Assembly: GCA_963712745.1 (NCBI GenBank) | Contig: CAVQJC010000008.1 | Span: 35,968-99,967 of the forward strand | Direction of reading: 5' to 3' | Length of the DNA: 64,000 nt | From: an uncultured Chloroflexia bacterium | GTDB taxonomy: Bacteria > Chloroflexota > Limnocylindria > Limnocylindrales > CSP1-4 | Part shown: positions 37,166 through 58,202 of the stretch, piece after piece | Layout: each line of letters begins with the position of its first letter | Position numbering within the stretch: position 1 is the first letter of the stretch | Notes under the pieces: model-generated | Databases searched by the model: none | Seen by the model: only the letters and a program-made list of their open reading frames with translations | What the model was told of the DNA's origin: nothing | Translations under genes and position numbers: made by a program

Positions 37166-37298
37166 GGGCGGCTAGCTCAGCTGGTTAGAGCACTTGCTTG
37201 ACATGCGTCCTGCCGGATGCGGCGTAGGTGTCGCACGATGACGAGCCCTCACCGATGCGGTGAGGGCCTTGTTGTGGGCTGAACGTCATCGGCTGAAC
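37166..37298 (+). repeat. att-like junction copy 1: tRNA-Val(GAC) 5' half (37166-37206) plus conserved 92-bp arm
   Basis: GGGCGGC-TA-GCTC-AGCTGGTTA-GAGC-A-CTTGC-TTGACAT-GC, then non-tRNA sequence shared with three other copies. Confidence 0.92.
37245..37275 (+). terminator. Intrinsic terminator-like hairpin within the junction (also at 45433, 50834, 58149)
   Basis: GCCCTCACCG-ATG-CGGTGAGGGC perfect 10-bp stem followed by CTTGTT; the copy 4 change keeps a G-U pair. Confidence 0.7.
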
Positions 37299-37385
37299 TT
37301 GCGCGTAGGCGCGCGACGACCACGGCGATGAGCCGGACCGCCGAGACCTGCCGGAGCCCGGCGTCACGCGGCGGGTGGTCGTCCA

Positions 37386-37760
37386 TCATCGCTCATGCCG
37401 GCGGACCGGGAGCAAGCCCCGGTCCAAGAGCCAGGGGATAGCGACGGCACCGGAGATGAGGCGGAGAGTGACAGCAGGCGGCCCCGAAGAGGAGGAGGAG
37501 GTCGGCCGGTGTCGCGCGAGCGGGCGCGTCGACCGGGCCGATGGCACCGACCACTCGTCGTCCTGGTACGTCGCCAGCGGTGCGCTGAGGGGATCGACTC
37601 CGAGGACGCCGCACGCTGCCGCAGCCCACAGAGGCGCATCGGTCGGCGCGGGCTCGTCGAGAACGCAGTGTACCCACCGCGCAGATGTTGCTAGAGTGTC
37701 GCAGCCCGGCAACAAGGGCTGCGTTGCTTCGAGTGCGCTGCCCGCCCAGATCGACTGTCC
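37386..37760 (-). pseudogene. Decayed gene, possibly XRE-like HTH with C-terminal TM helix; homologous relics follow junctions 3 and 4
   Basis: APLWAAAACGVLGVDPL...LLLFGAAC..LISGAVAIPWLLDRGLLPVRRH; homologous DNA at 50975-51299 and about 58285-58395. Confidence 0.45.
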
Positions 37761-37876
37761 AGTCGTAGCCCCCAGAGGAAGGAGGTCGACCAAGCGACAA
37801 CAGCGCACACCCCTAGGGTCGTCGATGCCAGCCAACCAGTACATACTTTCGGCTTCTGTCAGGAGGAGAGTCGGCT

Positions 37877-38866
37877 ATGAAGAGAGTCCGCACCTTGACC
37901 AGCATCCTGGTCGCCTCGGGGCTACTCGCGATCATTCCGGCGGCACCAGCCGCCGCACAAGACACGGACTTGGTCACCGTGGTCAAGATCGCGGGCATCA
38001 ACTGGTTCAACCGCATGGAAGAGGGCGTGGTCGCCTGGGGCGAAGAAAACGGCGTGAACGCCGCCCTTGTGGGTCCCGCTGAGGCTGACGCAGCGCAGCA
38101 GATCCCGATTATCGAGGACCTGATCGCCAAGGGCGTGGACGCGCTGTGTGTCGTGCCCATGGACCCGACGCAGCTCGACCCGGTCCTGCAGAAGGCCATG
38201 GATGCGGGCATCACCGTCGTCACCCATGAGGCATCCAGCCAGGTCAACATGGACTATGACATCGAGGCCTTCGACAACATGGCCTACGGTGCCGGCCTCA
38301 TGGACCTCTTGGCTGCAGAGATGGGCGAAGAGGGTGAGTATGCCGTCTTCGTGGGTAGCTTGGGCTCCAAGACCCACAACGAGTGGGTCGACGGCGGCAT
38401 CAACCGCCAGATGGAGGCCTACCCCAACATGACGATGGTGGGCGACAAGAACGAGAGCTTCGACGACTCCGAGATCGCGTACCAGAAGGCCAAGGAGATC
38501 CTGGCCGCCTATCCCGACATCAAGGGCTTCCAGGGCAGCGCCTCCACCGACGTGGCCGGCATCGGTCGCGCGGTCGAGGAGGCTGGCCTGCAGGACGAAG
38601 TAGCGGTGGTTGGCACCAGCCTGCCGTCGATCGCAGGCGATCTGCTGTCCAGCGGCGCCATCGACGCCATCGGTTTCTGGGATCCGGCCGTGGCCGGCGC
38701 TGCCTGCAACCAGATCGCGATGATGACTCTGGCCGGCGAGACGGTCGGTGAGGGCACCGACCTAGGCATCGACGGCTACAACAGCCTCACGGCTGTGGAT
38801 AACGTGCTGTACGGTGACGCGGCGGTCTACGTGGACGCCTCGAACGCCGACCAGTATCCGTTCTAG
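37877..38866 (+). CDS. Sugar ABC transporter substrate-binding protein (LsrB/RhaS-like)
   Basis: Signal peptide; [43 protein letters not shown]. Confidence 0.9.
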
Positions 38867-38974
38867 CTTCTGATGTAGGTCCATCCCGCGAAGGTGGGGA
38901 TCCAGCACCGAACCGACTGGATTCCCGCCTTCTAGGGAATTGCGGAAGCTCACCGTCGCCGAGTCTGTTTCGCC

Positions 38975-40468
38975 ATGGCTGACGAACTGCTGCGTGCAGC
39001 TGAGATCTTCAAGTCCTTCGCCGGCGTTCGCGCGTTGCTGGACGTCGATCTGGTCGTCGAGAAGGGGCGAATCCACTGCCTGGTCGGCGAGAACGGCTGC
39101 GGCAAGTCGACGCTGATCAAGATCATCGCCGGCGTCTATCAGCGCGACGCGGGAACGGTCGTCATCAACGGCAAGGAGTACGACCGCCTGCACCCCATCG
39201 ATGCCATCCGCGAAGGCATCCAGGTCATCTATCAGGACTTCTCGCTCTTTCCCAACCTGACGGTGGCCGAGAACATCGCGCTCAACGAGCAACTGGCCGA
39301 GGGCCGGCGCCTGGTCAACTGGCGCAAGGTGCGGCGCGTCGCCGAGGACGCGCTGGCGCAGATCGAAGTCGACATCCCCCTCGATGCGCTGGTCGAGGAC
39401 GTGTCGGTCGCCAACAAGCAGCTGATCGCCATCTCCAAGGCGCTGCGCCAGGAAGCTCAGCTGATCATCATGGATGAGCCCACCAGCGCGTTGACGAAGC
39501 ACGAGATCCAGGCCCTCTTCGCCGTCATCCGTCGTCTACAGGAGCGCGGCATCGCCTTCCTGTTCGTCAGCCACAAGCTGGATGAGGTGCTGGAGATCTC
39601 CGAGACGATCATCGTCATGCGGAACGGCAGCGTCGTCAGCACAGGAGATCCTCAGGAGTACGACACCAAGCGCCTGATCCTCGAGATGACCGGGCATGCC
39701 ATCACAGAGAAGCCTTATCGGTTCGTGGCGGACACCAGCAAACCGGCGCTACTCAGGGTCGAGGGCCTCGAGGTCAACCACGCATTGCAGGACATCCAGT
39801 TCGAGCTCTACCCAGGCGAGATCGTCGGCGTCACGGGTCTGCTGGGCTCAGGTCGCACCGAGCTGGCCCTGGCGCTGTTCGGCCTGCTGCCCATCGATGC
39901 CGGCCGCATGTCCATGGATGGCCAGCCGGTCGTGATCAGGTCGATCGAAGACGCCATCGAGCACGGCATCGGCTATGTGCCTGAGGATCGACTGACCGAA
40001 GGGCTGTTTCTGGAGCAGGCCATTGGCCGCAATATGGTGGTGCGTATCATCGAGCGACTGCGCGGCACCCTGGGCCTGACCGACTCTCGCAAGGTCACCC
40101 GGCAGGTGAACGAATGGGTTGACCTGATGCGCGTCAAGACCTCCGATCCTGATCTGCCGGTCAAGACGCTGTCGGGCGGCAATCAGCAGCGGGTGGTACT
40201 GGCCAAGTGGCTGGCCAGCAAGCCCCGCTTGATGATCCTCAACGGGCCCACGGTCGGCGTCGATATCGGCTCCAAGGACGAGCTGCACGACATGATCAAG
40301 GAGCTGGCCGGCGAAGGCATGGGGCTGCTGCTCATCTCCGACGACATCCCTGAACTGCTGCAGACCTGCAACCGAATCCTGCTGATGCGCAATGGCCGCA
40401 TCACCGAAGAGATCCAGCCTCAAGAGACCGACGAGAACAGGCTCACCGCCAGGTTGATCGAGGAATGA
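38975..40468 (+). CDS. Sugar ABC transporter ATP-binding protein (tandem domains)
   Basis: [30 protein letters not shown]. Confidence 0.95.
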
Positions 40469-56927: not shown

Positions 56928-56989
56928 GGTTGGATCCTCCTGTTTGTGGTGCTAGGTCTTGTCCGTTGGCTTGCCTCGCGGGCGAACGG

Positions 56990-57421
56990 CTAGGCCTCCT
57001 CGCTGGCGAGGTACTCGAGCGCGGCCTCGACCGCGGCAGCGGGAATCTTCTCGTTGGCCACCAGGATGCCACCTGAGTCCCGAACCGCTTCGGCGAATCT
57101 CGCCGACCAGACGTTCTCCCAGACGATCAGGCCCGCTGAACTGTTGGGATCGAGGCCTTCAGCCACATACTGGATGTCCTCCTCGTTGAGTAGGCCCTGT
57201 ACCTCGTGGTCCAGGTCCTCGAAGGCCCCGGCGATGTCCCGTGGAAGCTCGGTCAGCTCGACCGCGGTCGTGGAGCCGTCCTCTCCCTTCATCACGAAAG
57301 CCAGGTCGATGATGTTCACGACGCCATTGTCGACAAGTTCCTTGAGCGCAGGCACGACCTCACCATTGAACTGGTTGCCTGGGAACGCGATGACCGCGTA
57401 TTCGACGGATCCGACTCTCAT
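56990..57421 (-). CDS. DUF6325/DUF1269-like protein
   Basis: GSVEYAVIAFPGNQFNGEVVPAL..LV..G.V.IIDL..V.K, LIVWENVWS; AGGAGG RBS. Confidence 0.8.
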   Translation of the reverse strand: MRVGSVEYAVIAFPGNQFNGEVVPALKELVDNGVVNIIDLAFVMKGEDGSTTAVELTELPRDIAGAFEDLDHEVQGLLNEEDIQYVAEGLDPNSSAGLIVWENVWSARFAEAVRDSGGILVANEKIPAAAVEAALEYLASEEA

Positions 57422-57669
57422 GGTTCCTCCTGCGTGACGTGCCGACCGGATTAGGACGAGTCGGACGGCCGCCCAGGTGCATCGTCTGCCGTGTCCTGGG
57501 CCGCGCTGGGCGATGATAGCGCTCAACGGGTTCCATAGCTTGGCGATGGGTGGCTTGAATGGTGGCCGGACGGACGCAGACCTACTATGCCTGGTTCTCG
57601 CCACCGGCAGCGCCTCAAACCACGGTCTGGTATCACGGCATCTACGCGATCAACGGCTGTTGCGGGTGG

Positions 57670-57801
57670 CGGGTCGCGGGACCCGGCCGCCACGAGGGTC
57701 TCGGCGATGGACGCGTGCCCGAAGTAGACCGCGCCGTCCACAGCCATGCCATCCGTCGTCAGCGTGTTGGGGTCGGTGCCGCAGTCGAGCAGCAGGCTGA
57801 C
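57670..57801 (-). pseudogene. Ankyrin-repeat gene fragment
   Basis: VSLLLDCGTDPNTLTTDGMAVDGAVYFGHASIAETLVAAG, preceded in frame by a stop. Confidence 0.5.
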
Positions 57802-58069
57802 CTATGGGTACCCTATACCTCGGGAGTGGTGTGCGGTCCTCTTGGAGCTCTGGCTCTGCCATTCCTCAGGCTGCGTCGGACCTGAGTTCTCCCGACCGAG
57901 GGACTGTTGCGGCCGATCCTCGAAGTAGCGGCGGTCGCTGGCATGGACCCGCCCGACGCTCGGACCCCCACGAACAGGAATCCGACGGCACGGATGTGCA
58001 GAGCCGACCCGTCGGCAAGTTGCCCGGGGATGACCGGCCCTCGAAGCCTCTGGTATCGTTTCCTGTCTC

Positions 58070-58202
58070 GGGCGGCTAGCTCAGCTGGTTAGAGCACTTG
58101 CTTGACATGCGTCTGACCGGATGCGGCGTAGGTCGCGCTCACGGGAACGCCCTCATCGATGCGGTGAGGGCCTTGTTATGGGCTGAACGTTATCGGCTGA
58201 AC
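58070..58202 (+). repeat. att-like junction copy 4 (tRNA-Val 5' half plus arm)
   Basis: Same 133-bp length; tRNA half identical to copies 1 and 3, arm more diverged. Confidence 0.92.

Follow-up and report, generated by a model that had tools for sequence, protein, structure and literature searches.

We examined a 64,000-nt stretch of DNA (the window; positions 35,968 to 99,967 of contig CAVQJC010000008.1, here C8) from an uncultured Chloroflexia bacterium, one of the soil and sediment Chloroflexota. An earlier reading of the letters alone (the original prediction) had proposed that it carries an array of gene cassettes delimited by four junctions, each containing half of a tRNA-Val gene. The genome under study (G000; other G-numbers denote compared genomes) is a metagenome-assembled genome (GCA_963712745.1) of 20 contigs and 4.2 Mb with 68% G+C, 84.55% complete and 5.03% contaminated. 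Genus-wide comparisons covered 49 genomes including G000, the contigs of this genus being titled 'uncultured Chloroflexia bacterium' or 'Chloroflexota bacterium'. A repeat search of the window returned a single family of four co-oriented, 170-nt units at 37131, 45319, 50720 and 58035 (spacings of 8188, 5401 and 7315 nt), and no further copy, decayed ones included, was found elsewhere in the window. Their 133-nt cores begin at 37166, 45354, 50755 and 58070, align without gaps and are 100, 94, 98 and 89% identical to copy 1 (copies 1 to 4), in agreement with the positions, spacings and lack of indels originally proposed. Each unit joins the first 41 nt of tRNA-Val(GAC) to a conserved 92-nt arm, and identity to the tRNA stops 2 nt past the TTGACAT anticodon loop. 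Unit 1 (37131-37298, on the plus strand like the others) is made up of an integrase-gene stub with the tRNA promoter region (37131-37165), the tRNA 5′ half (37166-37206) and the arm (37207-37298), which carries GCGGCGTAGG at +54 and a terminator-like hairpin at 37245-37267. The 5′ halves of unit 2 (45319-45486), unit 3 (50720-50887) and unit 4 (58035-58202) lie at 45354-45394, 50755-50795 and 58070-58110, respectively, and the stub of unit 2 reads T-V-A-E..V-T-R followed by a stop.

ARAGORN found no tRNA gene in the window. Contig C8 terminates where the window does, and the tRNA therefore could not fall inside it. The original prediction had called for an intact, co-oriented tRNA-Val(GAC) sharing the 41 nt of the units, and the only intact tRNA-Val(GAC) of G000, at C10:7833-7909, indeed has these as its first 41 nt. 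In two relatives the tRNA gene is contiguous with units: G024 carries units at 1030675, 1032106 and 1038965 (decayed) together with the intact tRNA-Val at 1039209, all on one strand of a single 1.2-Mb contig, and G054 has a unit at 1396 upstream of, and co-oriented with, tRNA-Val at 12171 on a single contig. Both thus show on one contig the arrangement by which islands are recognized in the Islander database, an intact tRNA gene with a displaced, co-oriented fragment (here the 41-nt 5′ part, upstream). The conserved left flank of the island on C8 (24000-30598), which consists of core genes, is 75-80% identical to one syntenic place each in G022, G024, G050, G053 and G054 (five of the five arm-bearing relatives tested), and synteny with the relatives stops near 30598. 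The right flank, on C10, is 74-88% identical to that of relatives, and the C8 left flank and C10 right flank are the two flanks of the G024 island, where 29 kb of a single contig separate them. From the left flank to the first unit the distance is 6.5 kb in G000 and 11-20 kb in relatives (20 kb in G024); we take the junction-less 6.5 kb to be older, eroded island. G059 has an intact tRNA-Val(GAC) gene and, 10.8 kb downstream, a 50-nt piece of its 3′ part (G059:C2:456731-456780), and this is a different, 3′-type element on the same tRNA gene.

Half-tRNA junctions are not confined to tRNA-Val. When both halves of all 47 tRNAs of G000 were searched against the genome, we found 21 5′ halves of tRNA-Pro(TGG), 16 of them co-oriented at C5:77058-110161 upstream of the tRNA at C5 c[73679-73753], and 12 3′ halves of tRNA-Thr(CGT), 10 of them co-oriented downstream of their tRNA on C5. 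The remainder were seven 3′ halves of Gly(TCC), the seven 5′ halves of Val, two 5′ halves of Lys(TTT) and single Arg and Asn fragments. In scale, a single genome of 4.2 Mb holds about 50 half-tRNA junctions, spread over at least five tRNAs. Identity to the tRNA ends at the anticodon loop or 2 nt past it in each array, whether of 5′ halves (Val, Pro, Lys, Arg) or of 3′ halves (Thr, Gly), and this boundary is the anticodon-centred crossover known for tyrosine integrases. The Pro array (G000:C5:73679-110161) has a conserved arm of its own, of about 110 nt, and G022 bears a similar Pro array on its contig C15. The 3′-half arrays downstream of tRNA-Thr(CGT) and tRNA-Gly(TCC) occupy C5:295866-362286 and are also seen on C11, on C15 and at the end of C20; their halves are preceded by a conserved GTCCTCGCGA-like arm, and identity to the tRNA begins at the anticodon loop.

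The units were surveyed more widely in a set of 39 from nine genomes and 16 metagenome contigs, 31 distinct ones being used for identity and covariation. Pairwise identity among these is 97.7% in the 5′ half and 88% in the arm, whether the two copies come from one genome or from different ones, and drops to 55% directly upstream of the unit and 40% directly downstream. The Val arm carries GCGGCGTAGG at +54 and a copy one base shorter near +91, and the Pro arms, otherwise unlike the Val arms, carry GCGG[CT]GAAGG at +53 and +91. Boxes resembling GCGG[CT]G[AT]AGG were found at six of the seven Val and 12 of the 16 Pro junctions, both boxes being present at eight Pro junctions; in the whole of G000, 15 of the 16 box pairs spaced 30-46 nt apart lie at half-tRNA junctions. 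Within the Val arm, a 10-bp hairpin followed by CTTGTT resembles a terminator (1 found against 0.1 expected). None of 31 predicted base pairs in the unit showed covariation among the 31 near-identical copies, and in a diverged copy from G060 two compensatory pairs keep the hairpin. A scan of genome contigs for the arm returned six stretches, only on contigs titled uncultured Chloroflexia or Chloroflexota, and a metagenome scan returned the 16 contigs with units, none of which carries an integrase. The Val-unit pattern had no match in IMG/VR. A search of IMG/VR for box pairs gave matches (152 among the loci listed), none with tRNA D-arm-like sequence upstream, and these were set aside as chance or coding repeats.

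Structure of this kind could also belong to a dispersed tRNA-derived repeat, akin to miniature inverted-repeat transposable elements or repetitive extragenic palindromic sequences, or to a family of small RNA genes in which a tRNA promoter and 5′ half are followed by a terminator. The hairpin behind the 5′ half is what such a gene would have, and the unit folds better than shuffled sequences (z = -2.76). However, the original prediction had itself named scatter through the genome as an argument against it, and the seven full units of G000 are all on island contigs, four on C8 (plus strand), one on C9 and two, mutually co-oriented, on C16, with none scattered elsewhere in a whole-genome search. 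The units are co-oriented with tRNA-Val, are missing from IMG/VR, contain the remains of an integrase gene (see below) and have analogues in the 3′-half arrays downstream of Thr and Gly. We therefore give a repeat or small RNA family almost no credence.

The remains in question lie in the roughly 45 nt upstream of the units, which are homologous to the first codons of a family of tyrosine integrases. The family is named here after P0001, a candidate integrase found by crossing the genus-wide list of integrases with that of tRNA-Val genes. P0001 is an intact protein of 316 amino acids, encoded about 107 nt upstream of, and divergent to, a second tRNA-Val(GAC) copy in G057 (contig C6). It has a SAM-like N-terminal domain and a catalytic PF00589 domain and is Xer-like, scoring below every NCBIfam cut-off. 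Integrase remnants adjoin tRNA-Val on G057:C15 and in G011 and G060. That of G060 retains 45 residues, 71% identical to P0001, and reaches to within a few nucleotides of tRNA-Val; its codons T-I-A-E align with the CTCTGCTATCGT box of the units. The strict pattern T-[I/V/M]-[A/P]-E, 9-13 nt from the tRNA start, is present at 21 of 41 sites (10 nt from it at 19), the remaining sites being mostly one-letter variants as judged by eye. Homology usually stops after about 11-14 codons, and the C9 unit of G000 keeps 43 integrase residues with 58% identity to P0001 (E = 6e-13). At a 5′-half junction of G060, 8.4 kb upstream of its tRNA-Val, there is also a diverged copy of the 92-nt arm, which together with the integrase stub links arm, 5′ half and integrase as parts of a single element family. 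Given the stubs in the units, the cassettes resemble autonomous elements that have decayed, not entities that began as cassettes. To judge from the sequence, the tRNA promoter would sit within the first codons of the integrase gene. In a circular form, the integrase gene would have the arm immediately before it on the coding strand, where the arm could hold integrase promoter or binding sites.

Intact members of the family show the layout expected of such elements. Relatives of P0001 (37-47% identity) occur in 10 of the 49 genus genomes, G000 and G022 being without one, and at all 14 genus loci fetched a tRNA gene on the opposite strand has its 5′ end 100-190 nt from the integrase start (Arg(TCG) six times, Val(GAC) twice, and Arg(TCT), Ala(GGC), Pro(TGG), Gly(TCC) and Gly(CCC)). 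In four of five genomes with the integrase at tRNA-Arg(TCG), we found the predicted succession, with a co-oriented 5′ half of 39-42 nt, then a stretch of 9.1-28.6 kb, then the integrase gene and the intact tRNA; identity stops at the end of the anticodon loop. The GCGG[CT]G[AT]AGG boxes are absent from the arms of these integrase-bearing Arg elements. One integrase-bearing tRNA-Arg element, in G005, has an open reading frame (ORF) resembling a TerL nuclease (E = 6.8e-7) among genes without assignment. Across the phylum, a relative at E <= 1e-40 was present in 42 of 401 sampled genomes (41 of 400 when the unpublished G405 is left aside). Among 29 phylum loci examined, not counting that of G405, a tRNA lies no more than 430 nt from the start of the integrase in 25; in 12 of them the tRNA is divergent (the 5′-half layout), and in 13 the integrase is co-directional behind the 3′ end of the tRNA (the 3′-half layout). 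Three of the four loci without a tRNA (L215, L223 and L224) sit at contig ends. The presence of both layouts in one integrase family fits the occurrence of 5′- and 3′-half arrays side by side in G000.

Taken together, the anatomy of the units, their position and orientation relative to the tRNA, the position of the crossover, the integrase stubs and the intact relatives indicate that the array probably arose by serial integration of a P0001-type element family into tRNA-Val(GAC). The units would be left junctions (attL-type scars) of elements that entered the anticodon loop of this one tRNA gene one by one. At the end abutting the tRNA, each element would have carried a small Xer-like tyrosine integrase gene pointing away from it, with the tRNA promoter in the first integrase codons, and the 41-nt 5′ half; its other end would have begun with the 92-nt arm, with its two GCGG[CT]G[AT]AGG-like boxes and hairpin. 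Crossover in the anticodon loop would join the 5′ half of the element to the 3′ half of the chromosomal gene and so rebuild a working tRNA on the right, while the former 5′ half would be displaced leftwards and joined to the arm of the newcomer. The integrase genes of the window would later have been lost save for stubs of about 11-14 codons, leaving the cargo between the scars. The mechanism given in the original prediction, with units as left junctions, circles supplying promoter, 5′ half and arm, and crossover in the anticodon loop, survives as part of this proposal. We infer the order of events, the role of the arm in integrase binding or expression and the route by which the integrase genes disappeared from this arrangement.

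Several observations weigh against serial integration by this family. No PF00589 integrase was found on C8, C9, C16 or C10 or in the C5 arrays of G000, nor near the arrays of G022, G024, G049-G051, G053 and G054, and among all 39 surveyed units there is no full integrase gene nearby, only the stub on C9. A complete Val-type element was not seen either: the integrase of G057:C6 lies on a 34.6-kb contig without a detectable left junction, and its spacer is different. No junction is recognizable at the left flank of the island itself. The likeness of units 1 and 3, which are 99% identical across 300 nt and near-identical through the first ~580 nt of downstream DNA, could be due to duplication or gene conversion instead of two separate insertions. 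Finally, C9 and C16 may be part of a second strain's island instead of continuing C8. The G000 bin probably mixes two related strains, as C1 and C2 carry an identical tRNA run (Ala, Ile, Ser, Ser, Arg, Ser, Ser) and C16 and C17 have 88% blocks in common; with regions duplicated in this way, C9 and C16 may derive from the other strain, which matters because junctions were counted per genome.

Other recombinases were also considered. The four PF00589 matches of G000 are two Xer genes on C4, one gene on C12 and a C-terminal fragment beside tRNA-Lys. The Xer pair is core, syntenic in relatives and about 100 kb from tRNA-Val, and it is all that the integrases of G000 and G022 have in common. The C12 tyrosine integrase was rejected as the integrase of the array, as it occurs in only one of the 49 genus genomes (G000 itself). 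A tblastn search with the G000 integrases against the unit-bearing DNA gave no match, and no serine recombinase (PF00239, PF07508) was found near the arrays.

The similarity of units 1 and 3 bears on a further explanation, in which homologous recombination or segmental duplication multiplied a few original junctions and the units served as portable patches of homology. A multi-cassette block in common with G022 and a cassette gene with a 99% identical copy elsewhere in G000 would also be accounted for in this way. However, the cargo of the four cassettes is unrelated, divergence among the arms reaches 14%, and the stubs upstream are of different subtypes. Moreover, homologous recombination can neither make the first junctions nor set boundaries at the anticodon loop in five tRNAs, and we consider this a very improbable origin of the array.

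A different question is whether serial integration left only scars or whether the cassettes still move. Under the latter scenario, the unit of roughly 170 nt would be a portable site under selection, and circles of cargo without integrase genes would be excised, move from one Chloroflexota species to another and enter tRNA-Val again through an integrase acting in trans. We regard such an active cassette system as unlikely, and extend the same doubt to its corollary that excision could occur between any two units or between a unit and the tRNA. In its favour, none of the 39 units has a full integrase gene alongside, but no trans-acting integrase was found, G000 and G022 having no P0001 family member and only the Xer pair in common. 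The cargo of cassettes 1 and 2 reaches to about 110-140 nt from the next unit, and the arms and 5′ halves are as similar between genomes as within them, against 40-55% identity outside the unit and 74-88% in the core flanks. G000 and G022 also have in common a block of 6.4 kb (93.3% identity) and one of 3.7 kb (97.3%), compared with 79-86% in the flanks. Transfer of cassettes would explain this, yet the junction unit is absent at some boundaries of these blocks in one or the other genome, as erosion would give. The boxes common to Val and Pro arms at +53/54 and about +91, their near-restriction to half-tRNA junctions and the hairpin maintained through two compensatory changes in G060 speak for a site with a function; the stubs and the 43-residue remnant, on the other hand, indicate decay of autonomous elements. 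No circle or empty site was observed, the public runs offering short contigs only. Part of the stretch is contained in 20 of the 22 public sequencing runs listed, as short low-depth contigs, and over 36001-56000 the joints in these have sides of only 20-41 nt, with none at unit boundaries, which makes them uninformative on circles, on empty sites or on the absence of either. Whether integrase-less cassettes with highly conserved junctions are dead scars or a trans-mobilized gene pool is the question that these arrays raise. If the unit were active and portable, a single machinery would serve several tRNA-anchored arrays, since Val and Pro use the same arm grammar, and the whole would be a multi-site analogue of an integron built on tRNA genes.

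Returning to serial integration, repeated insertion at a tRNA is a known route of island building, and what is unusual here is the scale and the lack of surviving integrase genes in the array. By its island layout and cargo, the array is, functionally, comparable to an additive tRNA-anchored island of the tycheposon type. As described for Prochlorococcus, newcomers drive older elements inward, partial tRNAs and degenerate elements are found throughout, several tRNAs per genome seed islands, and nutrient uptake is among the cargo (bioRxiv 10.1101/2020.12.28.424599), all of which have their like here. Unlike tycheposons, however, the present islands belong to a different phylum and a high-GC genome, with far more junctions per island (seven for Val, 16 for Pro) and no full integrase in the arrays. 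No replication, excision or packaging hallmark gene was detected among the 29 window ORFs scanned.

ICESt of Streptococcus provides examples of cis-mobilizable elements and of accretion. The arrays share with this concept, as set out in PMC3146451, att-flanked segments without integrase or transfer genes that stand in tandem at one site; here, in contrast, no intact element is present within the arrays. The same source describes the ssrA islands of Dehalococcoides, in which an integration module is missing from 15 of 31 tandem islands, these being read as cis-mobilizable elements joined by accretion (PMC3146451). Those islands resemble ours in phylum, in tandem stacking at one small-RNA gene, in direct repeats of its end and in strain-variable cargo, but they target tmRNA, have a 20-bp 3′ repeat, lie downstream and use a CcrB-like serine recombinase (PMC3146451), whereas the present array is found upstream of its target, a tRNA anticodon loop, duplicates the 5′ half and goes with an Xer-like tyrosine recombinase. 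With tandem, partly integrase-less islands at such genes on record in Chloroflexota (PMC3146451) and in Prochlorococcus (bioRxiv 10.1101/2020.12.28.424599), the novelty claimed in the original prediction was overstated. Our literature search found no such arrays described in Chloroflexota other than Dehalococcoidia.

The 5′-fragment islands of Islander have in common with the present ones an intact tRNA gene with a co-oriented displaced fragment, an anticodon-centred crossover and a tyrosine integrase. By its account, 159 of 3919 islands have a 5′ fragment, 2083 of 3919 are of the anticodon-centred crossover type, and only four tandems have at least three members, each with its own integrase (PMC4383910). 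Islander looks for an integrase gene inside each island; here there are only the stubs of about 11-14 codons in the window and the 43 residues on C9, and the arrays would thus fall to its integrase filter. As to the label 'integron-like' used in the original prediction, there are real likenesses: an ordered array of cargo running in one direction, a conserved recombination site of about 100-170 nt and toxin-antitoxin genes in the island. The array is nevertheless not an integron, as it fails the defining tests. No integrase lies beside the array or the tRNA in G000, G022, G024 or G053, that is, at the insertion point, and the units carry integrase stubs; P0001 scores 42.5 bits on the integron-integrase model TIGR02249 (cut-off 265); the cassettes hold four to seven genes on both strands with regulators of their own, not promoterless single genes; and instead of attC the site is a tRNA half with integrase stub and an arm with one 10-bp hairpin. 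What sets the array apart is the duplicated 5′ half, rare among Islander islands, together with its scale, the overlap of integrase and tRNA and the common arm boxes.

One of the main ways in which free-living bacteria gain genes is through additive islands adjacent to tRNA genes. What is known of their mechanism comes largely from Prochlorococcus and a small number of pathogens, and the same process is seen here in uncultured Chloroflexota, with a compact Xer-like integrase family beside tRNA genes across the phylum. The exact att sites, the candidate integrase and the common arm motif put the system within reach of bench tests.

The cargo of the window was assigned by scanning 29 ORFs with Pfam and, for some, NCBIfam, and no recombinase domain was found among them. 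As originally proposed, the intervals between units are modules of whole genes. Cassette 1 (37299-45318, all on the plus strand) encodes a sugar-type ABC transporter (binding protein 37877-38866, ATPase 38975-40468, permeases 40465-41472 and 41528-42574), a 3-hydroxyisobutyrate-type dehydrogenase (42603-43490) and dihydroxyacetone kinase (DhaK 43599-44600, DhaL 44528-45211); no counterpart was found in the 48 other genus genomes, save for 65-69% matches to the DhaK part. Cassette 2 (45487-50719) holds a Lipoprotein_15 repeat protein (45608-46444, minus strand), a HisKA_3 kinase (46526-48430) with a LuxR-type response regulator (48427-49182), and two cupredoxins (49142-49738 and 49942-50580). 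Most genus genomes carry its operon at other chromosomal positions with 72-78% identity, but the figure is 91% in G001 and G055. Cassette 3 (50888-58034) has four genes identified by Pfam, all on the minus strand: an NMT1-like binding protein (51355-52752), a radical SAM/SPASM maturase (53167-54642), a sulfatase (54652-56277) and a DUF6325 protein (56990-57604). For the NMT1-like gene there is a copy with 99% identity at G000:C17:82116-83500; either the gene was duplicated recently or the bin contains a second strain. Cassette 4 (58203-64000), truncated by the end of the contig, encodes an IS110-family transposase (58719-59717, minus strand; NCBIfam, C-terminal half of the profile only, 107 bits against a cut-off of 140), a YscW-like lipoprotein (60290-60787) and two beta-lactamase-fold serine hydrolases (60860-62197, minus strand; 62405-63721, plus strand). 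The original prediction had taken identical cassette content in distant relatives as a sign against it; in the 49-genome comparison content varies between species and is species-specific, so that this sign is not seen.

Between the left flank and unit 1, the island DNA without a recognizable junction (30599-37130) contains GNAT/FemAB-like and ATP-grasp genes (Pfam). It also contains, on the minus strand, a remnant of a GerE-type helix-turn-helix (HTH) gene at about 35640-35900, with 78.5% DNA identity to a copy beside tRNA-Val whose relatives match GerE. A GerE-type HTH gene lies upstream of the intact tRNA-Val on C10 as well and upstream of eight of the 39 junction units (33 of which have at least 500 nt of upstream flank), and is thus not universal. 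A YoeB/ParE toxin (35961-36224) and a Phd/YefM antitoxin (36221-36478), both on the minus strand, form a pair that may stabilize the island. The ORF directly upstream of unit 1 was considered as a hidden recombinase and rejected, since it is the N-terminal half of an IS21 transposase (about 36529-36972, minus strand; the NCBIfam match covers positions 1-148 of a 294-position profile with 76 bits, the cut-off being 160). Fragments of IS21, IS110 and IS3 type are present in the island and count in favour of decay.

Two smaller features recur near the units. The ORF of the IS110-family transposase, an RNA-guided type, starts about 500 nt past unit 4 and appears to separate the arm region from an inverted 5′ fragment resembling tRNA-Pro. 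The combined search for repeats and tRNA halves placed two such fragments in cassette 4, on the minus strand (60187-60237 and 62236-62286), and similar ones at C10:7254-7298 and C16:15009-15055, with identity to the tRNA ending before the anticodon loop. One block common to G000 and G022 starts exactly at an inverted fragment of this kind. In several places the fragment opposes a Val unit, with about 350 nt between them holding a 43-codon hydrophobic ORF. This ORF, on the minus strand about 85 nt past some arms, has coding-like G+C content at third codon positions (GC3) and is frameshifted in units 1 and 3.

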